Shown here: positions 3,891 to 47,845 of the stretch, piece by piece | Layout: each line of letters starts with the position of its first letter | Position numbering within the stretch: the first letter of the stretch is position 1 | The notes under the pieces: model-generated | The model's input: the letters and a program-made list of their open reading frames with translations, nothing else | Databases searched by the model: none | Told to the model about the DNA's origin: nothing | Assembly: GCA_021081985.1 (NCBI GenBank) | Contig: GCA_021081985.1_3639.2 | Direction: 5' to 3' (one strand) | Source: a phage | Length of the DNA stretch: 54,988 bases | Program-made: the position numbers and the translations under genes

Positions 3891-4082
3891 TTAGAAGGGT
3901 TTGGTAACTACAGCCATATACCAGCCATTACACACAGATATGCCACCTGAAATACAGTAGCCTTTTCTAAACCAAGTGTTTAGTTTTAATTCTAATTCTG
4001 AAATACTAGTTCCTGTGAGAATCTTGACATTTTTATCCACCAACCCTCCTAAAATCATTATATAGGAATACAGCTTTGGCAA
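3891..4082 (-). CDS. Hypothetical small protein
   Basis: 63-aa ORF in the same-strand gene chain; no recognisable motif. Confidence 0.3.
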   Translation of the reverse strand: MPKLYSYIMILGGLVDKNVKILTGTSISELELKLNTWFRKGYCISGGISVCNGWYMAVVTKPF

Positions 4083-4773
4083 ATCCTCTTGGGGTTAACG
4101 ATCTTATAACCTTTGTCTTTTTTGATTTACCACCCAATTTTAGGTGCTGCTCAGAATACCCGCTTACCACGGGAACAGGTAATTTCTCAGGCATCCTAAA
4201 ACCATTTCCTGTCCACAAACAAGTCTTTTTAGGGTAGGCATCTCTGGGTTTTATGTATTCTGGAAAAAATGGATGAACATCATTCTCTGTTAAATATCCA
4301 CCGTACTCATAAGGATGAAATGAATGATCTGGTTTACGCCACAGAGAAGATAGAACACTAACTGGATTTTCTATCATGTAAGGGCAGCCGTATTCATCTG
4401 CCAACCTTGCTGCCACTTTTGCTGTATTTACAGCCTTTATCTGGAATAAAGGGTCTTTTGCAGCTTTTCTTGCGAAATGCGCTGCACCACTAACAGCCAT
4501 ATCTGTGCATGGTGGGAATGCGAATATAATACTTGGCTTACAAATCCCTACCTCTGCTGGGTTAAATTGGTCATCTATCCAAACATTAATGTATTCTATA
4601 TTTTTGTGTTTTATTCTGATACTTTCATAACCGCCGTGATCAGCGCCATCATAATTAAGGCATATTACTTTGTACCCATTTTTTGCCCATTCGTAACCCA
4701 TGATACCTGATCCGTCAAACATGCACAAAACTGTATCACTCAACACACCTCCTATACCAGAAAACAGGCCCAT
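4033..4773 (-). CDS. DNA (cytosine-5)-methyltransferase-like protein
   Basis: N-terminal MGLFSGIGG (motif I FxGxGG), FPPCTDMAVSG (PC motif IV) and MIENPVS (ENV-like motif VI) in canonical order. Confidence 0.55.
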   Translation of the reverse strand: MGLFSGIGGVLSDTVLCMFDGSGIMGYEWAKNGYKVICLNYDGADHGGYESIRIKHKNIEYINVWIDDQFNPAEVGICKPSIIFAFPPCTDMAVSGAAHFARKAAKDPLFQIKAVNTAKVAARLADEYGCPYMIENPVSVLSSLWRKPDHSFHPYEYGGYLTENDVHPFFPEYIKPRDAYPKKTCLWTGNGFRMPEKLPVPVVSGYSEQHLKLGGKSKKTKVIRSLTPRGFAKAVFLYNDFRRVGG

Positions 4774-4801
4774 AGTGTGGGCCTTTTAAGTTACGCTAAA
4801 A

Positions 4802-5023
4802 TCAGTGCAACACTGCATGAACGGGGCTTCCATCAGCACCGTAAGGAATGTCTTGTACCTGGGCCACCCTTTTCACTAAAGTATACACCAGCCAACCTTC
4901 AGCTTCATGTTGTCCTGCAATATCATAACCATCATCAAGAAGTTCAGCCAGTTTGTTCTCTACTTCTTCTCTTTTTGTTTTGCTAATTTTGAACTCAATG
5001 AGTTTAACAGTGTTTTTAACCAT
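4802..5023 (-). CDS. Hypothetical protein
   Basis: 73-aa ORF tiling the minus-strand chain. Confidence 0.3.
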   Translation of the reverse strand: MVKNTVKLIEFKISKTKREEVENKLAELLDDGYDIAGQHEAEGWLVYTLVKRVAQVQDIPYGADGSPVHAVLH

Positions 5024-5027
5024 AATT

Positions 5028-5312
5028 CTAGAAACCTTCTTCTCTATTGTAACACCCGTTTATCTCTAGATCTCTCAGGTATTCTCTTAAATGATGGTAT
5101 AGCACATCATCTGGAATGTCAAGATAGATTTGCTTACCGTTTTTGAATACAGCGCAATATTCCAGTTCCTGAAAGCCGTTGTAATCCCAGTCGCTTTCTT
5201 TACTGAAGAAGTCAGGTTTTTGAACAGAAAATAGAGCTTCGACAACCACCAATCCGCAATCCTCATGGTCGTATTCGAACTCAATGTCTACCATAGGGGA
5301 TTTGCTATTCAT
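5028..5312 (-). CDS. Hypothetical protein
   Basis: 94-aa ORF; stop adjoins the next gene start. Confidence 0.35.
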   Translation of the reverse strand: MNSKSPMVDIEFEYDHEDCGLVVVEALFSVQKPDFFSKESDWDYNGFQELEYCAVFKNGKQIYLDIPDDVLYHHLREYLRDLEINGCYNREEGF

Positions 5313-6615: not shown

Positions 6616-6617
6616 AA

Positions 6618-7043: not shown

Positions 7044-7053
7044 CAGCTATCTC

Positions 7054-8358
7054 CTACTTACCAGGGAAAGTCTCTTCATAAAACTTAACAAGACGTTGAT
7101 CAACGATAATATCTTTATCCCTGATCCTACGTAATAACCTTAATCCTTTTGCACTTGTTGCTCTGCTAAAAGCCACGTATGCCATGCCTGGTGCAAAAGT
7201 CCCATTGCCAAAGTCAACATTAACTTCCGGTAATGTTAATCCTTGTGCTTTGTGTATTGTAACAGCCCACCCAAGACGAATCGGCAAAGCCCTGTACTCA
7301 CCAATGATAATCTTCTCAATTTCTTCAGTTATTGTACCATCTGGGTTTTTCACCTTTATGGGGTTATACTCAACATTTTCCCACACATAAGGTTCTACGT
7401 CAACAATATCCCCATTTTCAAGACGGACTCTAACACTGTATCTACGTAGTTCAACAATCTCTCCACGGGAACCATTCACATAACTTGGTTCCTCCAGTCC
7501 TTTAGGGTCATTGACAGTAATCATCACCTGCGCCCCCTCTTTCAGGTACAACTCTTCCGGCACAGGTGTCTGGTTAAATTGCCCTGTCTTTTTTGCCTTG
7601 TAAACTGTTGGGATTCCAGGTATTGCATCAAAACGTTTTTTGTTTATTTTGTCTGCTGCTGCGTTTGTTGAGGTTATTGTTATAGCATCCAATGGTTTTC
7701 CCATGTTGTAGCAATAAGTATTCATAAACTCAACAATCTCTGGAATACGCTCTCCCTTGCGAAGGCAATTAAGAAGTGTTGAAAAATGAACACTACTTTG
7801 CCTGTAGATTTTATCAAGAAATACAGGATATGGGTTCAATTCTTTCCATGTTTTAGAAAAGCAACAAAGTTCTGTGTCGTGGAACTGGTAGTATATCTCT
7901 TTTTCTTCACTTTTTAAAACAGGTGGATTCTGTAAGAAATCCCCGAACATACACACCTGCAAACCACCGAAAGGCTCTTTGGGTTTTTTACGTGCCAGAC
8001 GACATTTCATGTCCATTTCCCAGAGTTTGTCTGCCCTGAACATACTTATCTCTTCAATAATAAGAATCTTCAGTGCTTTACTTTTAAGCAACTTCTTAGC
8101 CTTTGCCTTTATTTCCTCTGCATCTTTTTTAGTGGACACGCCTAATGAAAGTCCGAAAGCTCTGTGTGCTGTCATACCATCCACATTAATGGCAGCAGCC
8201 CCTGTAGGGGCCACTGTCAAAACTGAGCCTGCGTATAAGGATTGGATAGTTTTTATAGTATGACTCTTTCCAGCACCTGCATAACCACTGATAAACACAT
8301 TCTCACCTGACATTATAGCGCCGAGAGCATCTTCAACGCCAACCCCGTATTGAGACAT
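7054..8358 (-). CDS. dda: Dda-like SF1B DNA helicase (RecD/Pif1 family)
   Basis: 434 aa; Walker A GYAGAGKSH near the N-terminus, Walker-B-like LIIEEISM, C-terminal GWAVTIHKAQGLT and AYVAFSRAT motifs typical of Dda/RecD helicases. Confidence 0.7.
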   Translation of the reverse strand: MSQYGVGVEDALGAIMSGENVFISGYAGAGKSHTIKTIQSLYAGSVLTVAPTGAAAINVDGMTAHRAFGLSLGVSTKKDAEEIKAKAKKLLKSKALKILIIEEISMFRADKLWEMDMKCRLARKKPKEPFGGLQVCMFGDFLQNPPVLKSEEKEIYYQFHDTELCCFSKTWKELNPYPVFLDKIYRQSSVHFSTLLNCLRKGERIPEIVEFMNTYCYNMGKPLDAITITSTNAAADKINKKRFDAIPGIPTVYKAKKTGQFNQTPVPEELYLKEGAQVMITVNDPKGLEEPSYVNGSRGEIVELRRYSVRVRLENGDIVDVEPYVWENVEYNPIKVKNPDGTITEEIEKIIIGEYRALPIRLGWAVTIHKAQGLTLPEVNVDFGNGTFAPGMAYVAFSRATSAKGLRLLRRIRDKDIIVDQRLVKFYEETFPGK

Positions 8359-9371
8359 CAGTCCTCCTTAGATTCTTGTAGATAAATCTCTTCAAGAATT
8401 TTACCCTGTACCCCAATGACAATAATATCTGGTGCACCTGCTGGTTTTGGTGTTCCTGTCAGAACTTCATAACGACAGCAACGGCATTTTTTCTGGTTAT
8501 AGTCATAAGGGACACTGACAATATCTGCCGGATCCACAGATACTTCTATAAGTACCCTTGAAGTCTTCTCAAAGGTAGCGGCATAGTCAATAGATGCAAC
8601 ATGCAAACCTTGGCTACATGTTCTATTGGGATTATCCTCAACCATATTACGTGGCATGGAAATAACTTGCCCTTTATAATTAGGAACTTTACCTGTATGG
8701 CAATCTCGTGGACCATCTACAGTTATCTTAATTTTCTTGTATGCCTTAATATTTCCGTTTTCAAGGATCTCAAGATCATTATGTTTTACAAAATCATAAA
8801 GCATTTTAACAGAAGCATACGACGGGTTGTGTAGCAACTTCTGCATGAATTTGACATATCGTTCGTCAAAGCAATCATTCTCAATATCTTTAATGATTCG
8901 TTTAGCAATACTGCTTTCCTGTTTTTGACCGTGCCAATACAAAACACTATCTATCAATACTAAATTATCACCAAAATCAATGGTCTTTTTCTTTTCTGCT
9001 TCTTTCTCTTCTAAAATACGTTGTACAGCAGCATCTATTCCTCCTGTCCAAAGGATAACACCAACTTCTTTGAAGATGGGGCTGCTACTATTTAGAGTAT
9101 ATTGTTCACCATTTAACAAAGTGATATGGATATTATCTTGGGTAACAAGGACAATTGGTTGTGCAAGAGTATGCACGGGCTTCATAATATCTACAGGATC
9201 TTCCTTAGCCTTTTTGGTTGTCGGCATTCCTTTTTTGGGTGCAACTGTCCAGCGTTTAAGAACATTTAGACCACGATCAACAACCACCATATTATTTTTC
9301 TTAGCGTATTCACGAGCTTCACGACGTGACATGAATAAAGGATTACTCACCTTTTTCTCCTTTGTTGTCAA
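8358..9371 (-). CDS. rIIB: rIIB-like protein
   Basis: 337-aa ORF immediately downstream of and overlapping the rIIA-like gene, the conserved rIIA-rIIB order. Assignment is by synteny and size, not a verified alignment. Confidence 0.45.
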   Translation of the reverse strand: MTTKEKKVSNPLFMSRREAREYAKKNNMVVVDRGLNVLKRWTVAPKKGMPTTKKAKEDPVDIMKPVHTLAQPIVLVTQDNIHITLLNGEQYTLNSSSPIFKEVGVILWTGGIDAAVQRILEEKEAEKKKTIDFGDNLVLIDSVLYWHGQKQESSIAKRIIKDIENDCFDERYVKFMQKLLHNPSYASVKMLYDFVKHNDLEILENGNIKAYKKIKITVDGPRDCHTGKVPNYKGQVISMPRNMVEDNPNRTCSQGLHVASIDYAATFEKTSRVLIEVSVDPADIVSVPYDYNQKKCRCCRYEVLTGTPKPAGAPDIIVIGVQGKILEEIYLQESKED

Positions 9372-11343
9372 TAAATTTACGATACTCTAGCATCTCTGGA
9401 GTATTGAAATGCCTAATATTAATGTATTTTAACAATGGGTAGCGATCTTTCTTAATTTGTAGCAGCTTTTTACCAATTCTCTTCTTGGCCTCTATCATCC
9501 ATAATGCTTTCTCACGGCTATCTTCGTAGCCAGGAACTGAACAATAACTGGGCATGTTTACCTTCATCTCCCATTTTGGGAAACTGGCTACCATCACGCC
9601 GAAGTAGCTAAGTTCTTTAACAATGTTATGATACTCATGGTCTTTCCCTACTTCTTGGTATAAATGATATTCAAGAAGGTTAGTTTTTGCAAGAGCATGA
9701 ATATCCTCCTCAGTTATAACCCGTGCCTCATCTGGCAGCCAACTTGATCTGTTTAAAGGCACAATATATAACTTACCAACCACACCGAGATTCTTGAGAA
9801 ATGTTGGTGGTTGCTTTCTCCAAGATGTTCTAAGATTGGAAACGTATCCTAACGGGCATAATCCTTTCACCTGCCCACCCCAGTATACCATAGCCGCCTC
9901 AATATCTTCAAATTGAGCACGGGAAATACGGGTTACATCTACGGAGCCATCTTGGTTGATTATCCAAACTTTATGACCTGGTTCGTAATAACCATAGCCA
10001 CCATACTTTTTATCTGCTTTTTGCACTGGTCGTTTTTCAAGTTCAGATAACTTGAAAATCATCCCTTCAAAGAATTTATCACTGTATAAGGACAGAGCGT
10101 AATCAGCATCGGTTATAAATGATCTCTTACCAAACTTCTCTGCGAGCCAGTTACATTTAGAGCGCACATACTTGTGATCATCATTGTAAACCAGTGGATG
10201 ACCATTCATCAACTCTGCGTATGAATATCTCTCATCCTTACCACGGCGTGAGCCTTCGCCACCATATGTTTCACAGTAATCTATGTAAGAACCATCAGTA
10301 TAATTCTTGAACTTATTTGCAATAAAAGCAGCACCATATTTTGTAGCGAAATAACCACCAACATATTTCATATGTTCAAGAACTGCTTTTAAAGTTGGCA
10401 GATCGCTTAATTCTTTTGTAATTTCTTCTCCACGAAGTCGGATAGCTTTCGTCACAAAACTTTCAAGTTTATCACGGAATCCTCCGTCATTCTTTCCTTC
10501 TACTGTCCATTCTCGGCCTGGGTCTACATTACAATCCCCAATAGGGATAGATACCGTCATCATGGGCAGTTCTTTACGAGTCGAGAGATAATCAGAGAGA
10601 TATGGTTGTTGCCCCATGATGACAACACTATCAGCGTTTCTCGACATGCTACTATACATCTCAAGAACCCAGCCAGTCTCCTCATCCTCATAACGATACT
10701 GAACAGGATAAGTACGATCTTCAATCTGCGTTTTAACAAAAGGATCATTAATGATATATGGAAATTTAGCATAGCGAAGGCATTTTACAATAGCCAGACG
10801 ATAAGCTCCTGTTTCCCAAGTGTTTACGTTAAATTTAACCTCTACACCATTCTCCTCTGTTGTTTCACAAGAAAATAAAGGCACAACCTCTGGTATTCCG
10901 CTGTTTTTGTGAACAGAGTATGTTGTTTTCACTCCATCTTTAACAGAAACAACTGTGAACATATCTGTTACTGCAAGAGGTGCTTTTGACCCAATACCTT
11001 TCGCGCCAATCAGATCATTACTGTTTCTTTTTGTGGACTCACCAATCATCATGAATGTACGTGTTACCATCTCATGATCCATACCTAACCCTGTATCCTT
11101 AACAGAATACCAAGGTTCCAAGTCTGTTGGTGAGTGGATGATGATGGGTTTATCAGAACACCCTGCCTCTGTATGAGCATCTACAGCGTTGAAGAGAGGC
11201 TCTCGTACTGCTGCTAAAGTTTTATCTTTATAAATTCCATCGATAAGAATACTGAAAGTCTCAGGATTCATTGCAATTGATGCTTGGTATCTTTCTACGT
11301 TCCCAGTTACCTGGACTTTGTTGTCAGATCTTTGAATAATCAT
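9343..11343 (-). CDS. rIIA: rIIA-like protein with GHKL/HATPase_c ATP-binding domain
   Basis: 666 aa; N-box REPLFNAVDA, G1 box DTGLGMD and G2 box GAKGIGSKA of the GHKL ATPase fold, as in phage rIIA; followed by the rIIB-like gene. Confidence 0.6.
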   Translation of the reverse strand: MIIQRSDNKVQVTGNVERYQASIAMNPETFSILIDGIYKDKTLAAVREPLFNAVDAHTEAGCSDKPIIIHSPTDLEPWYSVKDTGLGMDHEMVTRTFMMIGESTKRNSNDLIGAKGIGSKAPLAVTDMFTVVSVKDGVKTTYSVHKNSGIPEVVPLFSCETTEENGVEVKFNVNTWETGAYRLAIVKCLRYAKFPYIINDPFVKTQIEDRTYPVQYRYEDEETGWVLEMYSSMSRNADSVVIMGQQPYLSDYLSTRKELPMMTVSIPIGDCNVDPGREWTVEGKNDGGFRDKLESFVTKAIRLRGEEITKELSDLPTLKAVLEHMKYVGGYFATKYGAAFIANKFKNYTDGSYIDYCETYGGEGSRRGKDERYSYAELMNGHPLVYNDDHKYVRSKCNWLAEKFGKRSFITDADYALSLYSDKFFEGMIFKLSELEKRPVQKADKKYGGYGYYEPGHKVWIINQDGSVDVTRISRAQFEDIEAAMVYWGGQVKGLCPLGYVSNLRTSWRKQPPTFLKNLGVVGKLYIVPLNRSSWLPDEARVITEEDIHALAKTNLLEYHLYQEVGKDHEYHNIVKELSYFGVMVASFPKWEMKVNMPSYCSVPGYEDSREKALWMIEAKKRIGKKLLQIKKDRYPLLKYINIRHFNTPEMLEYRKFIDNKGEKGE

Positions 11344-12268: not shown

Positions 12269-12443
12269 TGTTTTGTTTCTCTTTAACAATAGGTGCTTTC
12301 TGAACAGAGTATACAAATGTTTTATTGTCTTCAATAAACTTTCTGCCCTGTTCTTCATCTTCAAAAATAATTGTGTCACACTTTGCCTTTAACATACCAC
12401 GTTCTACAGTTGTGTGTGTCGTAGAAACAATTAAAGCCATCAA
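12255..12443 (-). CDS. Hypothetical small protein
   Basis: 62-aa ORF between the RNA ligase and repeat-protein genes. Confidence 0.3.
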   Translation of the reverse strand: MMALIVSTTHTTVERGMLKAKCDTIIFEDEEQGRKFIEDNKTFVYSVQKAPIVKEKQNNDYD

Positions 12444-13474
12444 AACACCTCGTTAAGTTGTTCCATGTACCAACTACGGGCTTTATTTGTTGTAAATTTT
12501 GCCACGTCTTTCATAGAAAGAGAATTGGCTTCTAACACATCTGCTTCTTCTTTGTTGATATCGCGGTTAACCCATGCGATAAATGCCCCCAGAGATGCGA
12601 TGTCCAATCCAATTTCTTGCAACCCTTGTCGTAAACGGTTCTCAGTAACTGCATACTCCACAAAATCTTTGATAGATTGCAGTTTCACAGGATCAACGGC
12701 AGCCAGTGTTTTCACTTTAGAGACAGAATGTTTTTGCCCTTTCACTTTAAACCAAAGTGCAGAAACATGTGCCAAGTGGCGATCTTTAGGTGTCCATACC
12801 ACACCCTCACCAACACCAGATACGCCAAAATATTTACCTACTGGGCACTCTTTTTCTACACCTTCGGTAATCTGTGCAATTTCTGATTGCACTGTCTCTG
12901 GCATGTTAAAAGGAATATCCAGTTCCCACTTACCAAAAGTTAAAATATTATAAATACGTTGTTCTGGTAATCCAATGCCAAGAATATCGTCTAAGGCTAA
13001 CCATTTTCGATGGTCATTCTCTTTTCCTACTGCCACACGGAAAATAGTAAAGAAAGGCATGATTTCAGATACCGCAACACCTTTCTGGATACCTTTTCCT
13101 GAAAATTCCCCAGCAATTTCTACTGGGAACTTAAATTCAATACCCCGATCTTCGCAGATCTGCTTGACTTGCTCCAACAGGGGTTTATGGTCTTTTTCAA
13201 CCATAAAGGCCATAAACCCATAATTATCTTCTTCCAAAGACAAAACGCGTTCTTTGGACTGGTACACAACCTCATCTTCAGAATTAAAGACTACACGGCA
13301 ATTAGTCCCGTGAATTTTAACTGTTCCTACATAAGAAATGAGATATTGATCTGGAGAGGCAACCTTACGCTTTATATTGCCATTCTCATCACGACCATCA
13401 TAAGTCAGACGGTCATTAACCGCTCGGATAACGTTGCGAAATTGACTAGTGCTTGGGTACTTAGTTGCTTGCAT
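12440..13474 (-). CDS. RNA ligase, Rnl2-like (ATP-dependent nucleotidyltransferase)
   Basis: 344 aa; motif I lysine in VKIHGTN (the KxHGxN adenylylation motif of T4 Rnl2); size matches the Rnl2 family. Confidence 0.65.
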   Translation of the reverse strand: MQATKYPSTSQFRNVIRAVNDRLTYDGRDENGNIKRKVASPDQYLISYVGTVKIHGTNCRVVFNSEDEVVYQSKERVLSLEEDNYGFMAFMVEKDHKPLLEQVKQICEDRGIEFKFPVEIAGEFSGKGIQKGVAVSEIMPFFTIFRVAVGKENDHRKWLALDDILGIGLPEQRIYNILTFGKWELDIPFNMPETVQSEIAQITEGVEKECPVGKYFGVSGVGEGVVWTPKDRHLAHVSALWFKVKGQKHSVSKVKTLAAVDPVKLQSIKDFVEYAVTENRLRQGLQEIGLDIASLGAFIAWVNRDINKEEADVLEANSLSMKDVAKFTTNKARSWYMEQLNEVF

Positions 13475-13847
13475 TACTATCTTCCTTATTAATAAAGGTC
13501 ACACCAAGAGTGGCCTGGGCAAGAAGTTTCGTGATCTCCTGGCTCCATACAGGACTGGAGATAAAATGTTGTAATTGGAGGCTACCTAAGCGATAGGCGC
13601 TGTTCATCGTAATAGCATAGATTTCTCCATCGTGCATAATCATGCTTTCGACAACAGAAGTCCTGATATTAGAACCACTAAATCCACGCTTTTTGAGGTC
13701 ATCTGCTAAGTATCCGCAGATACAACGCACATCTTTTGTATAACCAAAACCGAAATAGGGTTCAGCACCAAACAGGATACCAGCGTATCTCTTCCCACAG
13801 ACATAGGTATCTTTAGATACGCCTGTTACAGATTTACTTTCCATCAT
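13461..13847 (-). CDS. Hypothetical protein
   Basis: 128-aa ORF; no motif recognised. Confidence 0.35.
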   Translation of the reverse strand: MMESKSVTGVSKDTYVCGKRYAGILFGAEPYFGFGYTKDVRCICGYLADDLKKRGFSGSNIRTSVVESMIMHDGEIYAITMNSAYRLGSLQLQHFISSPVWSQEITKLLAQATLGVTFINKEDSNASN

Positions 13848-14029
13848 TGTCCCTCCACATCGTCAATATCTTCCATACCATCTTGCCACAGAACTTCATA
13901 GCAAGCGTCATAAATTGCGCTCATAGCATCTTTACGATCTAACACATCTACAATTTTTGGATCAATACTTTTAATTGCTTCCGCAATTTTATCGTAAGCA
14001 ATATCAGGATGCATGTTCTTTTTTGCCAT
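13844..14029 (-). CDS. Hypothetical small protein
   Basis: 61-aa acidic ORF, translationally coupled to neighbours. Confidence 0.3.
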   Translation of the reverse strand: MAKKNMHPDIAYDKIAEAIKSIDPKIVDVLDRKDAMSAIYDACYEVLWQDGMEDIDDVEGQ

Positions 14030-14525
14030 CTGGGATCTCCTCTTCGTTTAAGACATAAATTGTCACATCACAATCATGGAGAACAGATTCTATCATAGTT
14101 TCTATGATTTTCCAATCCCCACCTGCTAGTCCAGCACCTATTTTTGGCAGCCCGATCTTATAATCAGACATAAAGCCATCTGTGTGCCTTTGCAAACAAT
14201 CTCGCATTGCTGCTAAAGAATCGTAAAGGGCGTTATAATTCAGATCCCTCACACCCATTCTACGCCCATTATAGCCGTATTGTGTGTACAGATTAAAACC
14301 CGCCAGCTTACCTTCGTTCATGACAGCCCAAGTATAACTGCCCAGTTTTGTTCGATCACCTTTCTCTGTCTTTAAATCTTCAGCATACATTTTTGGGAAT
14401 GTATTCTTTATTTCTTTAGCAATTCCAGACCCCATGGTGCAAAATGTATTACAACCATGAGCTATCACATTAACATCCCTTTTAAGTGCTGCCTCTATTA
14501 AGCAACCAACTTTATACTTAAGCAT
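14004..14525 (-). CDS. Macro-domain protein (ADP-ribose binding/processing), start trimmed to MLKYKV
   Basis: VIAHGCNTFCTMGSGIAKEIK glycine-rich ADP-ribose-binding signature and C-terminal GLPKIGAGLAGGDW match macro-domain proteins. Confidence 0.55.
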   Translation of the reverse strand: MLKYKVGCLIEAALKRDVNVIAHGCNTFCTMGSGIAKEIKNTFPKMYAEDLKTEKGDRTKLGSYTWAVMNEGKLAGFNLYTQYGYNGRRMGVRDLNYNALYDSLAAMRDCLQRHTDGFMSDYKIGLPKIGAGLAGGDWKIIETMIESVLHDCDVTIYVLNEEEIPDGKKEHAS

Positions 14526-14700
14526 TGTCTGATACCTCTTCGCATTCGTATGGATAGATATCCAGTCTTTTCCCATTCCATTCGCAAGAGTAACACTCAA
14601 GAAAACTACCATTAAATATTTCTTCTCTTACTTCAAGAATATCTCCTGTTTTTGGATATCCATCAACATCCGAAAAATCAGAAATCATTTTAACCTTCAT
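14518..14700 (-). CDS. Hypothetical small protein
   Basis: 60-aa ORF; its ATG overlaps the upstream stop as ATGA. Confidence 0.3.
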   Translation of the reverse strand: MKVKMISDFSDVDGYPKTGDILEVREEIFNGSFLECYSCEWNGKRLDIYPYECEEVSDNA

Positions 14701-18851: not shown

Positions 18852-18917
18852 ACTCCAAAAATATTTTCATTGGTTATGAGGAATGTACAGAACTAAAAAA
18901 CAAAAGTCAACACTTGA

Positions 18918-18947
18918 CAAACTGAAAATTTGTGAGATACTACGAAT
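18918..18947 (+). promoter_or_regulatory. Putative promoter TTGACA-17-GATACT in the divergent intergenic region
   Basis: Lies between the minus-strand block ending at 18851 and the plus-strand gene starting at 18975. Confidence 0.35.
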
Positions 18948-34090: not shown

Positions 34091-34118
34091 AGATGTACTA
34101 TAATGAATGGTAATGAAC

Positions 34119-34147
34119 AGGCCGCATATTAGCGGCCTTTAATTTTT
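34119..34147 (+). terminator. Putative rho-independent terminator
   Basis: AGGCCGC-ATATTA-GCGGCCT followed by TTTAATTTTT. Confidence 0.5.
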
Positions 34148-34150
34148 CTA

Positions 34151-34178
34151 TTGACAATATTACACTAACCTTTAAAAT
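34151..34178 (+). promoter_or_regulatory. Putative promoter TTGACA-16-TAAAAT
   Basis: Precedes the small gene at 34210. Confidence 0.4.
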
Positions 34179-34209
34179 GTTCTCTGTTAAGTATCTTTAA
34201 AGGTGTAAC

Positions 34210-34389
34210 ATGTTTCAATCAATCATTGATGTTCTATCAGTCGCTAACAACGTGATGAATGTAATTACAATGATTAAACTTGTTGCGTGGTTTGTTTCTG
34301 GGGATTATCGCTATATCAAATGGCGCAAGCCAACCATAAAAGACGTAGCGAAGATCTCATTTGAAGCAATGACAGAATATTATCTATAA
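34210..34389 (+). CDS. Hypothetical small protein (59 aa, not in the ORF track)
   Basis: RBS AAAGGTGTAAC before ATG; translated MFQSIIDVLSVANNVMNVITMIKLVAWFVSGDYRYIKWRK... Confidence 0.3.
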   Translation: MFQSIIDVLSVANNVMNVITMIKLVAWFVSGDYRYIKWRKPTIKDVAKISFEAMTEYYL

Positions 34390-34401
34390 CGATTATTTTT
34401 G

Positions 34402-34430
34402 TTGACATCCTGGGATTACTCTTTTACTAT
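34402..34430 (+). promoter_or_regulatory. Putative promoter TTGACA-17-TACTAT
   Basis: Precedes the gene at 34485. Confidence 0.4.
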
Positions 34431-34484
34431 TAACGTGACTGGAAGGCCGTAACTGGTACGACCTGATTTGAAAGGTGAATTAAT

Positions 34485-34685
34485 ATGAAACGTTTTACTT
34501 ATGGTGTTGTCGGTGGTTCTGTTTCTAATCGGTTTTACAATACCGAGCGTGGTGCTAAAAATGCGGCTACCCGTGAACATGGCAATAGTGTGAATTTACA
34601 AGTTGGCTATATTAGCAAAATTAGCGGCATGTTTATTCCGGTTGCTCAACGCGGCATGTATTGCATAAACTGGATGCCAATGTAA
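34485..34685 (+). CDS. Hypothetical small protein
   Basis: 66 aa; RBS AAAGGTGAATTAAT before ATG. Confidence 0.45.
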   Translation: MKRFTYGVVGGSVSNRFYNTERGAKNAATREHGNSVNLQVGYISKISGMFIPVAQRGMYCINWMPM

Positions 34686-34700
34686 AAAGGAGTAATAAAA

Positions 34701-34892
34701 ATGGATGTACCACAAGTTAGAAAGGTATTAGCAGCGTTACGCTATCACAATTATAGCAAGGTGAAGAATGATCCTGATTATGTTGATTCAAGCCTGGAGG
34801 AAGACACATTGCAAGCTATAAGCCATATGCAGAAATTGCTTAAACGTATGACAGAGAAGAACAGATCTGATTATATAGGTGAAGAGATTTAA
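34701..34892 (+). CDS. Hypothetical small protein
   Basis: 63 aa; RBS AAAAGGAGTAATAAAA before ATG; last gene before the gene-poor region. Confidence 0.45.
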   Translation: MDVPQVRKVLAALRYHNYSKVKNDPDYVDSSLEEDTLQAISHMQKLLKRMTEKNRSDYIGEEI

Positions 34893-37809: not shown

Positions 37810-38433
37810 TTATCGTATAATCTCGCCTCGGAAAACTGTCTCTTGCTCCTGAAGATGCCTTGTTATGTAGTCTTTAATCCGATCATCAACCCATTTAATA
37901 CGTTCTGGGTTGGTGTGACATTTATCATTGAGGCTTTCCAACCAGTAAGCCGCTTGGTCAGCGGTGAATGGAAAATTCAATGGGCGACCCGCAGCTACGA
38001 ATTGTGCTTGCATCTCCCGAAGTAAGTTATCCCTTTCTCGCCATGACCAGCGCCATTCTGCATAAGCCTTCAGATTGTTTTTCAGACCTGTTTGTTTTGA
38101 AAATTTATACCCTAAATATTTGTCAGGGTCATTAAGCCATTTCTGGTAAGCCGTGTAAAACTCATATAGTTTTTCACTTGAAACTTTTACCTTTGTTGTC
38201 TGCATTGGTGGCAGAGGCAGATATGCCCAGTGTGTTGGTTCACACACAATACGTGTATCATCGTGGTAAGCATACTGGAATACACCTTGCCCAATATGAG
38301 CACCAACAAACATTTCTTTAGTGTCTGAGCAGAACACCAGAACATCTACAAAATCTGGTGGTAACTTATCGGAGCACATTACCCATGTATCTGTGTGATT
38401 GGTTTTTAATTCCGCAAAAAATTTATTGTTCAT
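37810..38433 (-). CDS. DUF551-domain protein (start trimmed to MNNKFFAELK)
   Basis: WVMCSDKLPPDFVDVLVF ... THWAYLPLPP matches the DUF551 signature; RBS AAGGGTG before the internal ATG. Confidence 0.5.
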   Translation of the reverse strand: MNNKFFAELKTNHTDTWVMCSDKLPPDFVDVLVFCSDTKEMFVGAHIGQGVFQYAYHDDTRIVCEPTHWAYLPLPPMQTTKVKVSSEKLYEFYTAYQKWLNDPDKYLGYKFSKQTGLKNNLKAYAEWRWSWRERDNLLREMQAQFVAAGRPLNFPFTADQAAYWLESLNDKCHTNPERIKWVDDRIKDYITRHLQEQETVFRGEIIR

Positions 38434-38626
38434 ACTTACACCCTTAAAAATAAGGAAAACAGACAGGCGACCCCACCAAATACATTGACACAACTTAGAA
38501 GAATACTCCACAATCTTTTCCAGCCTTTAACAGCAGCACTTTCCGAGAATCCGCAGAGTGCCAATATGAAATTGGAAATTCCAAGAAAGGCCAGTAGTAA
38601 ATTTAATAGTATATCTATCATCGGCA

Positions 38627-38983
38627 TCACCCAAACCACATTACTATCCCTAATACTACGAAAAGAAACCCAAGTAGGCAAAAGGAGGTTATTCTCTCTT
38701 TCTTTTTAAACTCTTTTGTTGGGTTGTAATTTTCCTGTTTTAATACAAGGTTCTCATCATACCAAGTAATCCGTTGCCCGTTCAGGTTATGATACCGCTT
38801 ATGAAGCTGCACAGCTTTTTTGGCAATATCTCCTGTTGGGTATGGGTTTGAGTACATGGCCTCGCCATCATCTGAAACTACTGTTTGGTTTATCGCATTA
38901 CCATCGTAGTACACTTCCCAGCAGGATTTAGTTATAACCCCATCAACCATGTCTTCTATGTGGTATATATTGTACTTGCTCAT
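38627..38983 (-). CDS. Hypothetical protein with C-terminal hydrophobic segment
   Basis: 118-aa ORF. Confidence 0.35.
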   Translation of the reverse strand: MSKYNIYHIEDMVDGVITKSCWEVYYDGNAINQTVVSDDGEAMYSNPYPTGDIAKKAVQLHKRYHNLNGQRITWYDENLVLKQENYNPTKEFKKKERITSFCLLGFLFVVLGIVMWFG

Positions 38984-39351
38984 GCGTACTCTTTTATCTC
39001 CTGGATTGCATCTTTCGATAGCCAGCTATCAACAGGAATACTACTGAAATCTTTGTGCCAACGATGCGGTTTGTGTCCCTCCCTATGATCAAGGGTACAT
39101 ATATCCTCTGGCACTTTAAAGTGAATGCCTTCGATATCGTAATAGTTTCCGTCTATAAGGGTATAGACGTGCCCTTGTATCCTGCTATAGCATATCTGCG
39201 CCTGTGGGAAAATGTGTTTAAGTACTAATGCCACTTGGTAGCACTTTCCATTCTGACCAATCCACACACTATCTACTTGTGGTGGGAAAATATCTCTGAT
39301 TTTTCTTATCAGAGATGTTATATGGTTCTCTACACAACCTGCCATACTCAT
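38980..39351 (-). CDS. Hypothetical protein
   Basis: 123 aa; ATGA overlap with the downstream gene. Confidence 0.4.
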   Translation of the reverse strand: MSMAGCVENHITSLIRKIRDIFPPQVDSVWIGQNGKCYQVALVLKHIFPQAQICYSRIQGHVYTLIDGNYYDIEGIHFKVPEDICTLDHREGHKPHRWHKDFSSIPVDSWLSKDAIQEIKEYA

Positions 39352-39626
39352 CGCCTTGTTTTTAGCAGTGCCTTGAAAAATTTTCTCGCTGCTTTTTCTG
39401 CTTGCCCCTTACGAGAAAACTCGTTCTCTCTGAATCTCCATTTCCCAGTGTCTTCGTCCTTCCAGACTTCTGTACTAAGGAAATCAAGAATATTATCTGT
39501 AATCAATTCAATATCCTCATCTGTAAACCAATATTTTATGGCCCCGCTATAGACCTCTCGGAGGTACTCTCTACGGTCATCACCAGAAATCATATTTTTC
39601 CCTGATGGCTGCTCCCAACCCAACAC
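39348..39626 (-). CDS. Hypothetical protein
   Basis: 92-aa ORF. Confidence 0.35.
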   Translation of the reverse strand: MLGWEQPSGKNMISGDDRREYLREVYSGAIKYWFTDEDIELITDNILDFLSTEVWKDEDTGKWRFRENEFSRKGQAEKAARKFFKALLKTRR

Positions 39627-39767
39627 CTATAACTAGTAGTACTGCCACGAATACCAACCAAAAGAGATAAGCATTGCCAAAAATGGTTGTTGGAAACACA
39701 ACAATAAACAAAACAATCAGTACGACAGGAACCCCGATACACAAATTCTTCAGCACTTCCTTCATAA

Positions 39768-44363: not shown

Positions 44364-44393
44364 CCCTATCAGAGAGGTTTCAGAAATGATTTG

Positions 44394-45434: not shown

Positions 45435-45448
45435 ATATACTTACCTCT

Positions 45449-46693
45449 TTAGAATAACATATCCCTGCTGATTGCTTTACGAATAGCATCAATACGGGCT
45501 ACTCGCACAGCTTCACCAATCTCTTTACCATTCTTACCCTTTTCCAGAAGGGGTTTTGTTATAGCTTTAGAATCAACTTTTGTCATAGCGTCGTAGGCTT
45601 CCAGCAAAATATGACCTTGAAGATAAGGCTTATGCCTAAAATCACCACCTCTTCCTTTAGCATCACAATAACACGCATCTGCAAGTGTGTAAACCTTCAT
45701 TTTCTGATCCGCTTGTCCAGCAGCTTCAAATATTTTCATGATGCTTTTTGGTTTCAAACCGTTGTTACCATCTCTGGGAGAGATGGCGTGCACTTTTGTG
45801 TGATTTTCTGCAACATATTTTGCCGTGTCACGATAGATATTATAAATCTTCAACCTTTCACACAAGGATTGGATAACATCTACACCAGCTTTCTCATGAC
45901 CATGAAGATTACCATTGTCCTTGTAAGTTATAGCTTTGCCAAAATCATGGCACAGCACAGCAAACTTGGTCAGTGGATCAGCTTCTAATTCATCAGCAAC
46001 CCTTAACGCTAGAATTGTATGGGTGTAAGCATCCCCTTCTGGGTGATGTTCTTTAGGTTGTTGCACACCACGTAGGGCTTCCAGTTCAGGAAGTTCGCCA
46101 ATACGTCCCATATTGACAGCAAAAGATCTGAAATAACTACTCTTTAAGGCTTTCAACATTTCCTTCCATTTACGCTCGGCGCTTATTTCTGCCAAAGAGT
46201 GTCGGTTGTCATAAGCCAGTTTAAAAGTTTCTGGATGGATATGCCATTCTTCCCCAAGCTGGGCTTTAAATCTAAACAGGCGTAGAATACGTAATGGATC
46301 TTCAATAAACGCCTCTGATGTATGACGTAATGTTTTAAGTCCTAAGTCAACCTGACCGCCAAAAGGATCAATAATCTCACCACTATCAACATCCATCGCC
46401 ATGGAGTTGATGGTAAGATCTCTACGTGCCAAATCCTCTTCCAGTGTTACATCTGGACTAAAGCATACCTCAAATCCTTTATGGCCTTCGCCTGTTTTTC
46501 TTTCTGTGCGTGCAAGAGCGTACTCTTCTCTTGTTTCTGGGTGAAGATAAACTGGAAAAGATGCGCCAACTTGTGTGAACCCTCTTTTCAGCATCTCTTC
46601 ATGCGTAGCACCAACAACCACATAATCACGGTCTGATATTTCACGACCTAACAATTTATCTCTTACTGCGCCACCTACCAAGTATACCTTCAT
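45449..46693 (-). CDS. cca: CCA-adding enzyme (tRNA nucleotidyltransferase) with C-terminal HD domain
   Basis: MKVYLVGGAVRDKLLG, RDYVVVG, EEYALARTERK, RRDLTINS, GEIIDPFGG and EDPLRILRLFRF closely parallel the E. coli Cca head domain (recalled); C-terminal HDFGKA ... HGHEKAG gives the HD motif. Confidence 0.8.
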   Translation of the reverse strand: MKVYLVGGAVRDKLLGREISDRDYVVVGATHEEMLKRGFTQVGASFPVYLHPETREEYALARTERKTGEGHKGFEVCFSPDVTLEEDLARRDLTINSMAMDVDSGEIIDPFGGQVDLGLKTLRHTSEAFIEDPLRILRLFRFKAQLGEEWHIHPETFKLAYDNRHSLAEISAERKWKEMLKALKSSYFRSFAVNMGRIGELPELEALRGVQQPKEHHPEGDAYTHTILALRVADELEADPLTKFAVLCHDFGKAITYKDNGNLHGHEKAGVDVIQSLCERLKIYNIYRDTAKYVAENHTKVHAISPRDGNNGLKPKSIMKIFEAAGQADQKMKVYTLADACYCDAKGRGGDFRHKPYLQGHILLEAYDAMTKVDSKAITKPLLEKGKNGKEIGEAVRVARIDAIRKAISRDMLF

Positions 46694-47016
46694 TTCTTCG
46701 CCCACGTATTCATATAATTAACAATATCTTTTACGGTTCTCTTTCCGTCCAGTGGATAAACCATGTCATCGCTCATCCCACCGTGTTTTAGCATTGCTAC
46801 CAGTCTAGTATATACCTCTTTTGGTCTTTTGCAAGTTCTTTTCTTCCATTTATGACCGTCTGGGGAGTACTCCTTATCTTCAAGAGAGATATGAAGGATG
46901 TCTCCTATAAACTCTTTTGCCTGTGTGCTGTAAAGCGGACGGTGGAATATATAGAATTTCATTGCTTGCTCCTTTATTGTAATAACAATATCAGTGCAAG
47001 CTACATGTGTCAACAC
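46690..47016 (-). CDS. Hypothetical protein
   Basis: 108-aa ORF. Confidence 0.35.
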   Translation of the reverse strand: MLTHVACTDIVITIKEQAMKFYIFHRPLYSTQAKEFIGDILHISLEDKEYSPDGHKWKKRTCKRPKEVYTRLVAMLKHGGMSDDMVYPLDGKRTVKDIVNYMNTWAKK

Positions 47017-47044
47017 ATAAAGAAAAACCCGCTAAAAAGCGGGT
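47017..47044 (-). terminator. Putative rho-independent terminator (minus strand)
   Basis: On the minus strand AACCCGC-TTTTTA-GCGGGTT is followed by TTTCTTT. Confidence 0.45.
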
Positions 47045-47052
47045 TATCTCTC

Positions 47053-47334
47053 TTACCATGTTACAAATATGTTTATAGATGTGCCTTGTTTTGTTGGCTG
47101 ATAGCTAATAATATCTACCGTGAAACCACCACCACGAAGATCGCCAACAATATGAGGCAGGTAATCACCCATTTCCTCCGGGAACTGTAGTGACATACCC
47201 ATTCCAAATAGACCTTTCTTTGCACATTGGCTGATCCCGTTTACTATCTGGTCGTACAGTTCCACCAGAGATTTTGGGGTGTCCTTTTTCGACTTGTTCG
47301 CTATCTCTCTCATTTTGCTGGCGACATTTGCCAT
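47053..47334 (-). CDS. Hypothetical protein; overlaps the 3' end of the Dam-like gene in another frame
   Basis: 93-aa ORF with protein-like composition; about 170 nt overlap with 47165..47845. Confidence 0.35.
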   Translation of the reverse strand: MANVASKMREIANKSKKDTPKSLVELYDQIVNGISQCAKKGLFGMGMSLQFPEEMGDYLPHIVGDLRGGGFTVDIISYQPTKQGTSINIFVTW

Positions 47335-47845
47335 CTTTACCTCTTAAAAAATAGAAAGGCTTCAAATTAAGGGTGTTCTTTTTGTCCCACACATACCATG
47401 CATACCCGCTTCCATCTGTCTTACCATCCTCTGTAAAAGATGGTCTTTGAGAAAGTACAAGCAGAGATGTTGGGGGATTATCTTGCCACCACTCCCACCT
47501 TTTCATACTTTCAAGAAAACCAAGACGTAGAAGCATGATAACGACATCAGCGTCACGCAGAGCTTTCTCAACAAATTCTTGAGCCAGTGAGTATGGAGGA
47601 TTAGAGATTATGATGTCTGTGTGATTATACTCTGTTGCCAGATAATCAACACCTTGACGTATTTCTCCCCAAGCACTTCCGATTGGTAGAAAATTATAAA
47701 TCCTACCGGAAGCTCTGCACGGCTCCATATATTTCTTTTTCATATCTATGGGGATGACTTCCAACAGGGCTTCAACAGCCCATACTGGGGTTTCATACGT
47801 GTCGTATTCTCTCCGATCACCCTTCCTTTTCAGGGGTGCTACCAT
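47165..47845 (-). CDS. DNA N6-adenine methyltransferase, phage Dam-like (true 3' end uncertain)
   Basis: YETPVWAVEALL near the N-terminus, DIIISNPPYS (NPPY catalytic motif), VVIMLLRLGFLES and YAWYVWDKK; the last 55 aa of the ORF look like readthrough. Confidence 0.6.
   Translation of the reverse strand: MVAPLKRKGDRREYDTYETPVWAVEALLEVIPIDMKKKYMEPCRASGRIYNFLPIGSAWGEIRQGVDYLATEYNHTDIIISNPPYSLAQEFVEKALRDADVVIMLLRLGFLESMKRWEWWQDNPPTSLLVLSQRPSFTEDGKTDGSGYAWYVWDKKNTLNLKPFYFLRGKDGKCRQQNERDSEQVEKGHPKISGGTVRPDSKRDQPMCKERSIWNGYVTTVPGGNG

Follow-up and report, generated by a model that had tools for sequence, protein, structure and literature searches.

The window, that is, the whole 54,988-nucleotide stretch of phage DNA analyzed here, carries two DNA methyltransferase genes and a Lar-like gene that are unlinked and known already, and in the account that we consider likely as a whole, the two methylases would copy the Dam and Dcm marks of the host while the loss of restriction sites would protect the genome elsewhere. 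The source phage is an Avunavirus, an rV5-like myovirus of E. coli, the window sharing 95-97% nucleotide identity with Escherichia phages Av-05 and TH18 (Avunavirus, Vequintavirinae). In the RefSeq annotation of these relatives, two genes are named “DNA methyltransferase” and one “Lar-like restriction alleviation protein”, and all three are ordinary genes. Their identities in the window were as follows:

4033..4773, minus strand: compact orphan C5-cytosine DNA methyltransferase of the phage “Dcm-like” family (ORF of 246 aa, stop codon included)
19772..19960, plus strand: Lar/RalR-family zinc-ribbon protein of 62 aa (ORF, stop codon included; PF14354)
47165..47845, minus strand: small NPPY N6-adenine DNA methyltransferase (ORF of 226 aa, stop codon included)

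The original prediction had placed the three ORFs exactly, stop codons included, and its assignment of one C5-cytosine DNA methyltransferase, one N6-adenine DNA methyltransferase and one Lar-family protein was confirmed by PHROG profiles and catalytic motifs. As the genes lie 15 and 27 kb apart and in separate transcription units, the set is a thematic grouping and not a locus.

A compact C5-cytosine methyltransferase

The 4033..4773 ORF lies in the replication module, with a primase/helicase gene just upstream and a helicase gene on the other side. It matched phrog_757 “DNA methyltransferase” among the PHROG profiles (8.7e-88), with homologs numbering 4569 and the enzyme present in 1512 phage genome records. 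The ORF itself gave zero sequence matches in Pfam, NCBIfam or PDB; across its family, PF00145 was the only Pfam family matched by 22 of the 32 aligned members, and two members scored above its gathering score. The catalytic signature comprised:

4705..4719, minus strand: motif I FDGSG (SAM binding), residues 19-23 of the translation; F19, G21, S22 and G23 invariant or nearly so in the family alignment
4507..4515, minus strand: motif IV PPC with catalytic Cys89 (translation), invariant in the family alignment and aligned with C82 of the K42/KarlJaspers Dcm
4363..4371, minus strand: motif VI ENP with Glu135 (translation; ENV in canonical C5 methylases), invariant and aligned with E128 of K42 Dcm
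4225..4230, minus strand: Lys182-Lys183, corresponding by BLASTP to K175/K176 of K42 Dcm (predicted substrate-binding); K182 invariant, K183 nearly so

FDGSG, PPC, ENP and a further stretch, IRSLTPRG, were all invariant across the family. The product is a SAM-dependent C5-cytosine DNA methyltransferase whose recognition region is very small, and by the mechanism established for C5 methylases, Cys89 of PPC would attack C6 of the flipped-out cytosine, Glu135 of ENP would protonate N3 and the methyl group would be added at C5.

The closest characterized relative is the Dcm-like C5-cytosine methyltransferase of the Drexlerviridae phages K42 and KarlJaspers (Bas06), an enzyme of 236 aa that shares the length class and motifs of the window enzyme, with 55% identity over 229 residues to the KarlJaspers protein (BLASTP, E 9e-90) and with C82, E128, K175 and K176 corresponding to C89, E135, K182 and K183. 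The KarlJaspers/K42 enzyme sets off retron Ec86. K42 Dcm produces 5mC at CCWGG, as determined by LC-MS, and its inactive form Dcm-mut has C82 mutated and includes K175/K176 in its definition (10.1101/2023.08.16.553469). By analogy with this relative, CCWGG is probably, but not certainly, the target of the window enzyme; its specificity may differ, since the presumed recognition region carries a six-residue GYSEQH loop in place of the DNPGW of the K42/KarlJaspers Dcm, which also belongs to another phage family and another genomic context. In the AF2 model of the window enzyme (pLDDT 85.9), the top PDB folds were eukaryotic DNMT3A/3B, with a Foldseek E of about 1e-4, a probability of 1.0, a modest TM of ~0.4 and 14-18% identity; DNMT3A is likewise the top model match of the K42/KarlJaspers Dcm. 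The recognition region is unusually small in both the window enzyme and the DNMT3A/3B catalytic domain, but the window enzyme has neither the regulatory domains nor the oligomerization partners of the latter, and the modeled likeness is a structural resemblance and not family membership in a functional sense.

A minimal N6-adenine methyltransferase

The second methylase, found in 563 phage genome records, matched phrog_799 “DNA methyltransferase” (PHROG profiles, 1.8e-80). PHROG matches were thus strong for both enzymes, and Pfam was weaker, with no match for 4033..4773 and sub-threshold matches only for 47165..47845, centered on NPPY (EcoRI_methylase 15.3 bits, Dam 14.7 bits). The gene and its neighbors are laid out as follows:

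47336..47845, minus strand: catalytic core of the adenine methylase, about 170 aa, ortholog of bas51_0176 (phrog_799, family alignment, AF2 folds)
47705..47725, minus strand: motif I EPCRASG (SAM binding; translation); E41 and P42 nearly invariant, G47 invariant
47591..47602, minus strand: motif IV NPPY (catalytic, amino-methyltransferase; translation); N82, P83 and P84 invariant
47165..47335, minus strand: 56-codon C-terminal extension, predicted disordered, which uses the +1 alternative frame of the gene that follows
47053..47334, minus strand: downstream gene of 93 aa, function unknown (phrog_12158, 7e-19; phrog_15143, 1.3e-33; homolog of nimi_35)
47845..48792, minus strand: upstream ClpP-like protease gene, overlapping the methylase by 1 nt (phrog_5410, 7.5e-126)

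YxTP, EPCxxxG and NPPY are conserved in the family alignment, motif I precedes motif IV, and the protein has no recognition domain. The core was modeled with pLDDT above 90, its nearest folds being HsdM, M.TaqI, PacII and CamA, and the product is a minimal N6-adenine DNA methyltransferase of gamma-class motif order. Over this 170-aa core the window enzyme shares 60% identity (E 1e-74) with the enzyme of Vequintavirus nimi/Bas51. In Bas51 (WalterGehring), bas51_0176 (177 aa) is the trigger of retrons Asa1 and Squ1 and, as in the window, sits directly downstream of the ClpP-like protease gene, a neighborhood conserved in nimi, Bas51, PVP-SE1 and KB57. This ortholog, which has the same motifs, makes 6mA at GATC, a modification lost in the T83P mutant of Bas51 (PMC12548924). 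Among three adenine methylases checked, the published escape-mutation residues D69, D79 and T83 were present in bas51_0176 only, and were not found in bas51_0200 (Bas51) or in the 441-aa enzyme of the relative nimi; D69 and D79 correspond to D67 and D77 of the window enzyme, whereas T83 is replaced by Ser81. Vequintavirus genomes also differ in having two additional adenine methylases; neither the matching part of the window's replication module nor the annotation of Av-05 showed any such gene. By orthology, the window enzyme probably makes 6mA at GATC.

The earlier description of this enzyme as “Dam-like” is apt for its probable target, given the Bas51 ortholog (PMC12548924), but not for its family. 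Membership of the Pfam Dam family was rejected, as the score of 14.7 bits falls short of the 28.1 cut-off, motif I precedes motif IV with no recognition domain, and the folds point to HsdM, M.TaqI, PacII and CamA instead; even the best-scoring relative in the enzyme's own family alignment reached only E 4.9e-4 against Dam. NPPY, and probably the product, 6mA at GATC, are shared with E. coli Dam, T4 Dam (alpha class) and phage Dam PF05869, but the fold neighbors of the window enzyme are gamma-class, in contrast to the alpha-class E. coli and T4 enzymes, and alignment to the “Dam-like” methylase of KarlJaspers was limited to the NPPY stretch. The N-terminal YxTP presumably resembles the WxTP of PF05869 members.

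An NPPY enzyme with no recognition domain could also methylate RNA or protein, as do KsgA/Dim1, RsmC/D or HemK, and DIMT1/KsgA, ErmC' and a putative RNA methyltransferase scored similarly in Foldseek, some remote homologs matched the MTS and RrnaAD Pfam families, and 460 nt downstream lies the gene for a CCA-adding tRNA enzyme. We regard such a target as very improbable: most family members matched DNA adenine-methylase families (EcoRI_methylase in 22 of 34 and Dam in 19 of 34), and the 60%-identical ortholog is needed for GATC 6mA in Bas51 virion DNA (PMC12548924).

The 56-residue tail read from the alternative frame of the next gene distinguishes the window enzyme from bas51_0176. From residue 171 the pLDDT falls below 60; the tail also occurs in PVP-SE1 and KB57 and is absent from Vequintavirus, and its frame stays open against the odds, with an amino-acid sequence that is not conserved. 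The 47053..47334 gene, which overlaps the 3' end of the methylase by 170 nt, has an AAGAGG ribosome-binding site before its ATG.

The Lar-like zinc ribbon

The 62-aa ORF matched phrog_599 “Lar-like restriction alleviation protein” (PHROG profiles, 4.9e-11) and passed the gathering score of PF14354 Lar_restr_allev (36.9 bits against 28.6), the only Pfam family above threshold, but narrowly missed the NCBIfam TIGR03655 cut-off (37.0 against 39.6). Its surroundings comprise:

19796..19807, plus strand: CPFC of the Lar-like ORF (translation)
19871..19882, plus strand: CQKC of the Lar-like ORF (translation)
18975..19772, plus strand: upstream gene whose stop overlaps the Lar-like start codon (ATGA) (phrog_3118, 2.5e-94)
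18914..18941, plus strand: candidate sigma-70-like promoter, TTGACA, 16 nt, TG, GATACT (consensus scan), in the divergent intergenic region upstream of the HNH-like/Lar-like pair

The product is a zinc ribbon with four cysteines and belongs to the Lar/RalR family. It resembles Lar (RalR) of the E. coli K-12 Rac prophage in size (64 aa in RalR), Pfam family, CxxC...CxxC zinc-ribbon spacing and the terminal WN, but the two share only 29% identity over 49 residues (E 7e-6), and the window ORF, apart from missing the NCBIfam cut-off, belongs to a lytic phage and lies downstream of an HNH-like gene. The inhibition of host type I systems put forward in the original prediction depends on this identity and could not be upheld: RalR has been characterized as a non-specific DNase toxin (PMC4041452), leaving restriction alleviation and DNase activity as two conflicting, unreconciled reports for RalR/Lar.

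Somewhat short of an even chance is given to the ORF being a small, generic zinc ribbon with a task other than restriction alleviation, such as partnering the HNH-/anti-sigma-like protein encoded next to it, or acting as a RalR-like nuclease. Consistent with this are the overlap of its start codon with the HNH-like gene, the missed NCBIfam cut-off, weak matches to the Elf1, Trm112 and L37Ae zinc ribbons, and the DNase activity of RalR itself. By tblastn the ORF was found in six Avunavirus records only, with 84-87% amino-acid identity against 95-97% nucleotide identity of the surroundings, and this faster divergence also fits a generic ribbon, but counter-defense genes typically diverge fast too, and the sole Pfam family above threshold, the cysteine spacing and the terminal WN speak for Lar/RalR. 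The 18975..19772 gene, named HNH endonuclease, anti-sigma factor or anti-termination protein in GenBank annotations and with weaker matches to Srd/sigma-70-decoy families, is probably co-transcribed with the Lar-like gene. The 18914..18941 site as their promoter is only suggestive, since promoter-like sites in that intergenic region were no more numerous than in shuffles; the Lar-like product may be early, from a host-type promoter.

Site avoidance and the reach of protection

Of all anti-restriction signals in the sequence, the avoidance of restriction sites is the strongest, with 19 of the 64 hexamer palindromes absent from the window. GATC, with 221 sites, was the least depleted of the 4-mer palindromes, and CCWGG was kept (54 sites) against 3 CCSGG observed for 24-31 expected; retention of GATC and CCWGG is explained equally well by host Dam and Dcm. 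Type I sites were not significantly avoided, with three EcoKI sites in 55 kb. This avoidance of palindromes had gone unremarked in the original prediction.

A joint anti-restriction role had been proposed for the three genes, and it finds partial support. In its broadest form, with cytosine and adenine methylation shielding the genome and the Lar-like protein switching off type I systems, we hold it to be unlikely. Both methylases are intact and conserved over hundreds of phage genomes, Pfam places the third protein in the Lar family, its gene is preceded by a possible early promoter, and the EcoKI sites would give an anti-type-I function its targets. Against this, the genes are unlinked, the Lar-like protein has limited identity to Rac Lar, the methylases shield progeny DNA only and only at their own sites, and the massive avoidance of palindromes shows that modification leaves most sites unprotected. 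Bas51 encodes the ortholog of the adenine methylase (the Dcm-like gene of the same genus was seen in phage nimi), yet it plated at about 1e-4 on EcoRI and gave zero plaques on EcoRV or EcoP1, and the BASEL authors described the Vequintavirinae as “exceptionally susceptible” to restriction-modification systems (PMC8594841). Protection by the methylases must therefore be site-specific.

The same susceptibility of relatives to the systems tested would suit methylases serving mainly phage DNA metabolism, full GATC/CCWGG methylation avoiding MutH nicking or Vsr processing or, alternatively, marking DNA for replication, packaging or gene regulation. The location of the cytosine methylase between primase/helicase and helicase genes and the low depletion of GATC agree with this, and in other phages, P1 among them, Dam enzymes have a part in packaging. 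We nevertheless think a mainly metabolic role quite unlikely, as the adenine methylase lies outside the replication module among small genes of unknown function beside the ClpP-like protease, and the Bas51 methylase mutants D69G, D79G and T83P plaque at control levels, which makes the enzyme dispensable under laboratory conditions.

The preferred account, drawn by analogy, is that the three genes probably protect narrowly against host restriction enzymes. Both methylases would most likely reproduce the Dam and Dcm marks of the host on phage DNA as it rapidly replicates; such marks would block only enzymes cutting unmethylated GATC or CCWGG and would create no targets for methylation-dependent nucleases, and against most other type II enzymes protection would come through the loss of their sites.

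Gene content and prior annotation

The original prediction placed two DNA methyltransferases of different classes and a Lar-like restriction alleviation protein in the window, and its coordinates proved exact, as the mechanical ORF lists gave the same three reading frames.

Genes assigned to methylation and putative restriction alleviation (window positions)
4033..4773, minus strand, cytosine methylase ORF1, 246 aa
47165..47845, minus strand, adenine methylase ORF2, 226 aa
19772..19960, plus strand, Lar-like ORF, 62 aa

At the level of gene identity, the three are a cytosine methylase, an adenine methylase and a Lar-like protein. At the nucleotide level the window is 95–97% identical to members of the genus Avunavirus (Vequintavirinae), namely the Escherichia phages Av-05 and vB_EcoM_TH18 plus three sibling isolates. 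RefSeq Av-05 lists both methylase genes as ‘DNA methyltransferase’ and the third gene as ‘Lar-like restriction alleviation protein’. The Av-05 and rV5 genome papers make no mention of methylation or restriction; for a related clade, adenine and cytosine methylation had already been deduced from the same gene pair (PMC11370258). The three-gene finding is already known and ordinary, and carries little weight as a discovery, since the nearest GenBank records already annotate the genes, the deduction has been published for that related clade and relatives of both methylases have been characterized in the laboratory. Distances of 15 and 27 kb separate the three genes, which belong to different transcription units and hence constitute a thematic grouping and not a single locus.

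Another ORF, 13461..13847 (minus strand, 128 aa), located between an RNA ligase gene and a macro-domain gene, carries the label ‘methyltransferase’ both in phrog_16099 and in RefSeq Av-05. It was considered as a third methylase and rejected, because it lacks a Pfam match and any methylase motif and its one PDB match (IcmE) is spurious, and the label looks unreliable. The window also holds other possible host-defence genes, identified by annotation only.

Other possible host-defence genes, by annotation only (window positions)
8358..11343, rIIA/rIIB
12440..13474, RNA ligase
14004..14612, macro-domain protein
45449..46705, CCA-adding tRNA nucleotidyltransferase

The cytosine methylase and its relatives

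The assignment of the two methyltransferases by profile search was upheld with phage protein families, ORF1 matching phrog_757 ‘DNA methyltransferase’ at 8.7e-88 and ORF2 matching phrog_799 at 1.8e-80, but not with Pfam and NCBIfam, where ORF2 gave sub-threshold matches and ORF1 none. ORF1 searched alone had no match in Pfam, NCBIfam or the PDB sequence set and, against PF00145, fell short of the Pfam gathering threshold with nothing even at E ≤ 1. ORF1 had 4569 homologs in a large protein collection, and its family was present in 1512 phage records, among them those of Vequintavirus, Drexlerviridae, Jerseyvirus and Klebsiella Webervirus-like phages. In an alignment of 32 members, the blocks FDGSG, FPPCTDxAVSG, ENPVS and IRSLTPRG were invariant and corresponded to C5-cytosine methylase motifs I, IV, VI and IX. 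Specifically, motif I (FxGxG, SAM binding) is represented by the family-conserved FDGSG at residues 19–23, motif IV (Pro-Cys, whose cysteine is catalytic) by FPPCTD, with Cys89 invariant in 32/32 sequences, and motif VI (ENV, with the N3-protonating glutamate) by ENP, in which a proline takes the place of the valine and E135, N136 and P137 are invariant. When the family members were scanned separately, PF00145 was the essentially sole Pfam match in 22/32, and two ORF1 homologs exceeded the gathering score of 22, P0011 with 25.4 bits and P0039 with 24.7 bits, over a span covering motifs I–IV only. Membership of ORF1 in PF00145 is therefore transitive and at superfamily level.

The best PDB folds for the AlphaFold model of ORF1 (mean pLDDT 85.9) were the catalytic domains of DNMT3A and DNMT3B (E about 1e-4, TM about 0.4). 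Of all C5 methylases, these have the smallest recognition region, as befits an enzyme of 230 aa. Searches of the PDB with the ORF1-family profile or with either methylase sequence returned nothing useful, and in hhalign of the ORF1 family against the single E. coli Dcm sequence only the PC motif was aligned (PCQ of Dcm; E 0.14, not significant), a result given no weight here.

Phage K42, which is 95.4% identical to the BASEL phage KarlJaspers, carries a 711-bp ‘dcm’ gene that triggers retron Ec86. In that study, the K42 Dcm was shown by LC-MS to deposit 5mC on the retron msDNA, its effect was tied to CCTGG (CCWGG) by mutating the motif in the msDNA, and C82A/E128A/K175A/K176A Dcm, with residues picked via a model superposed on DNMT3A, was inactive (10.1101/2023.08.16.553469). 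The 711-bp ‘Dcm-like C5 cytosine methyltransferase’ of KarlJaspers shared 55% aa identity with ORF1 over 229 residues (E 9e-90), and C82, E128, K175 and K176 of the K42/KarlJaspers enzyme correspond to identical residues in ORF1 (C89, E135, K182 and K183). ORF1 is of the K42/KarlJaspers type in showing both full-length homology and all four functional residues, and by analogy with the LC-MS evidence for the 55%-identical K42 Dcm we infer that it forms 5-methylcytosine in DNA. In the presumed recognition-region loop, taken as a proxy for CCWGG recognition, ORF1 has GYSEQH whereas KarlJaspers has DNPGW. The family as a whole comprises two loop subtypes, GYSxQH (the window, Vequintavirus nimi and SSE121) and DNPGW (KarlJaspers). 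With a loop unlike that of KarlJaspers, ORF1 is likely but not certain to target CCWGG.

The adenine methylase and its overlapping tail

The Pfam and NCBIfam matches of ORF2, centred on its NPPY motif, were EcoRI_methylase (15.3 bits), PF05869 (14.7 against a required 28.1) and TIGR01712 (14 against 97), and the alpha-class Dam family was absent among its Pfam matches at E ≤ 0.1. Across the whole family alignment, PF05869 reached a best E-value of 4.9e-4, and the commonest Pfam matches of individual members were EcoRI_methylase (22/34), Dam (19/34, never near threshold) and Eco57I (8/34). YxTP, EPCxxxG and NPPY were invariant in this alignment. Motifs I (residues 41–47) and IV (residues 82–85) of ORF2 are separated by 35 residues with no recognition domain inserted between them, an arrangement other than that of the alpha-class Dam enzymes. 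The modelled core (pLDDT above 90) had type I HsdM, M.TaqI, PacII, CamA and M.BseCI as fold neighbours, and KsgA/Dim1-type RNA methylases resembled it about equally well. ORF2 is thus an NPPY DNA adenine methylase outside every curated family.

In Bas51 (phage WalterGehring, MZ501111), native nanopore sequencing revealed 6mA at GATC, which was nearly gone in a T83P mutant of its N6 adenine methyltransferase, and retrons Asa1 and Squ1 were no longer triggered with the escape mutations D69G, D79G and T83P in this enzyme (PMC12548924). The Bas51 enzyme was toxic on expression. Two ‘putative N6 adenine methyltransferases’ are annotated in the stretch of Bas51 examined, and bas51_0176 (177 aa, beside a ClpP-like protease gene) alone carries Asp69, Asp79 and Thr83; placing the published mutations in the 272-aa bas51_0200 or in the 441-aa enzyme seen in the relative nimi was rejected, as residues 69, 79 and 83 do not fit. 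bas51_0176 is the ortholog of ORF2. Identity is 60% at the aa level throughout the core (E 1e-74; the comparison was made with the nimi protein, which is nearly identical to bas51_0176), and D69, D79 and T83 correspond to D67, D77 and S81 of ORF2. Both genes directly follow a ClpP-like gene (47845..48792, minus strand, in the window), a neighbourhood kept in four genera. ORF2 shares with the Bas51 type (phrog_799) full-core homology, NPPY and EPCxxxG, and this synteny, and by analogy with the 60%-identical ortholog its product is probably 6mA at GATC. The term ‘Dam-like’ was misplaced as a family name, in view of the PF05869 score and the lack of alpha-class architecture, and is probably apt for the product. 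Non-specific adenine methylation was considered because ORF2 is small and has no recognition domain, and was rejected given that the Bas51 ortholog is GATC-specific and that Bas51 is fully restricted by EcoRI, EcoRV and EcoP1.

Further adenine methylases occur in Vequintavirus, namely a 441-aa beta-class DPPF enzyme (nimi, 38319..39644) and a 272-aa NPPF enzyme (Bas51, 34069..34887). The Av-05 annotation and the matching part of the window's replication module contained neither type, so that methylase content, like site avoidance, differs between the genera.

The one unexpected feature, beyond the scope of the original prediction, is that past its conserved core ORF2 has a 56-codon tail (47165..47335) that lies wholly within the next gene, a 93-aa gene at 47053..47334 (minus strand), in another frame, the two genes overlapping by 170 nt (47165..47334, minus strand). 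The overlap was also seen in Seunavirus PVP-SE1 and Mydovirus KB57 besides Avunavirus; some lineages have shorter tails, and in Vequintavirus, where the enzyme ends after 177 residues and functions without a tail, there is none. The tail frame is open in Avunavirus, Seunavirus and Mydovirus despite 41–73% identity of the overlapped protein. With free choice of synonymous codons in the overlapped gene it would be open 0.06–0.3% of the time, and among comparable windows in the phage's long ORFs just 1.2% have the corresponding frame open; a stop-making T occurred at 0/19 at-risk codon boundaries in the overlap versus 33% genome-wide. The odds of the frame being open come to roughly 1e-3 to 1e-2, and its openness seems to be maintained. 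The aa sequence of the tail, which is predicted to be disordered, is conserved at just 29–41%, and every conserved residue has an identical codon, indicating that this conservation is imposed by the other frame. Conservation only where the overlapped gene forces it, with shorter or absent tails elsewhere, argues against a sequence-specific role, and we consider it unlikely that the tail is a real dual-coding region kept by selection. If it has a function, the tail could add a DNA contact to a methylase devoid of a recognition domain; alternatively, ribosomes reading through the start site of the next gene could control translation of that gene.

A hairpin followed by a T-run, read by eye from the sequence, was seen immediately 3' of the stop codon of the 93-aa gene (AACCCGCTTTTTAGCGGGTTTTTCTT, 47027..47052, minus strand), and is likely to be an intrinsic terminator closing the unit of ClpP-like, methylase and 93-aa genes.

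The Lar-like protein, site avoidance and restriction

The Lar-like ORF passed Pfam PF14354 (Lar_restr_allev) with 36.9 bits against a gathering score of 28.6, over residues 7–57 of 62, and narrowly missed NCBIfam TIGR03655 (37.0 bits against 39.6). It contains the four cysteines of a zinc ribbon (CPFC and CQKC) and a terminal WN. Alignment with the K-12 Rac Lar/RalR gave 29% aa identity over 49 residues (E 7e-6), CPFC matching the first RalR pair exactly and CQKC falling at RalR CNGC with a one-residue offset in BLASTP. Rac Lar was described as alleviating EcoKI restriction (King & Murray 1995, cited in PMC4041452), and alleviation of type IA (EcoKI) restriction with enhanced modification is known for Rac Lar alone; the same protein, under the name RalR, was later shown to be the toxin of a type I toxin-antitoxin pair, acting as a non-specific DNase (PMC4041452).

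At tblastn sensitivity the Lar-like ORF was confined to the six Avunavirus records, and this very short query found a single 90% cluster in the big protein collection; its aa identity of 84–87% indicates divergence faster than in the flanking sequence. An HNH-like / ‘anti-sigma’ gene (18975..19772, plus strand) lies upstream, its stop codon overlapping the start codon of the Lar-like ORF, and the divergent intergenic region upstream of this pair contains a promoter-like site (TTGACA-16-TG-GATACT), the number of such sites there being no higher than in shuffles. Relative to Av-05, there is a 6-nt deletion near the 3' end of the Lar-like gene, and in the following gene (19962..20141, plus strand, phrog_10489 ‘tail protein’) a TAA in place of the Av-05 CAA leaves 59 aa instead of 87 aa.

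The grouping of the three genes as anti-restriction features holds in a narrow sense but not as general protection. Bas51, which has an active adenine methylase, plated with an efficiency of 0.1–0.6 on EcoKI and about 1e-4 on EcoRI, and formed no plaques on EcoRV or EcoP1 (PMC8594841 raw data). As such a phage is still restricted, the methylases give no general protection, and at most they would block enzymes needing unmethylated GATC or CCWGG.

Site avoidance in the window was extensive for hexamer palindromes, 19/64 being absent from its 55 kb. These include AAGCTT (16–27 expected), GAATTC (10–20 expected), CAGCTG, CTGCAG, GCATGC, GGTACC, GAGCTC and CACGTG, the sites of HindIII, EcoRI, PvuII, PstI, SphI, KpnI, SacI and PmlI, each with 7–27 copies expected. 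For hexamers expected at least 6 times, zero copies were found in the case of 8/44 palindromes versus 4/3243 non-palindromes. No copy was present of GAGACC, which is cut by Eco31I, or of any of the four GGYRCC variants, and two pentamers were depleted, CCSGG (3 copies versus 24–31 expected) and GGWCC (14 versus 43–55 expected). GATC, with 221 copies, was the least depleted 4-mer palindrome, and CCWGG, with 54 copies, showed a mild reduction only. Type I sites were at about half of expectation but within 1–2 SD, that is, with no significant avoidance. Vequintavirus nimi, over a stretch of 50 kb, avoids far less, with 1/45 palindromes absent and 6 EcoRI and 19 HindIII sites versus none of either in the window.

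This pattern fits escape from most type II enzymes by site loss, with the two sites under Dam/Dcm-type methylation kept. It is circumstantial, because host Dam and Dcm would give the same pattern; likewise, the fact that CCWGG persists where CCSGG is lost agrees with CCWGG being the site of ORF1 and is equally explained by host Dcm. The chemistry of both enzymes would follow the established C5 and NPPY methylase mechanisms, with site specificities taken from relatives at 55–60% identity, and both would copy host-type marks onto fast-replicating phage DNA, conferring narrow protection together with a retron liability. Each methylase is a documented retron trigger and so carries a cost as well.

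For the practical use of rV5-like phages in biocontrol or therapy, protection by the methylases is probably limited to GATC- and CCWGG-type sites, and as known triggers of retrons (Ec86; Asa1 and Squ1) these enzymes count as liabilities and not only as assets. With regard to restriction systems, host range would be set mostly by site loss, in which this Avunavirus is much further along than Vequintavirus.
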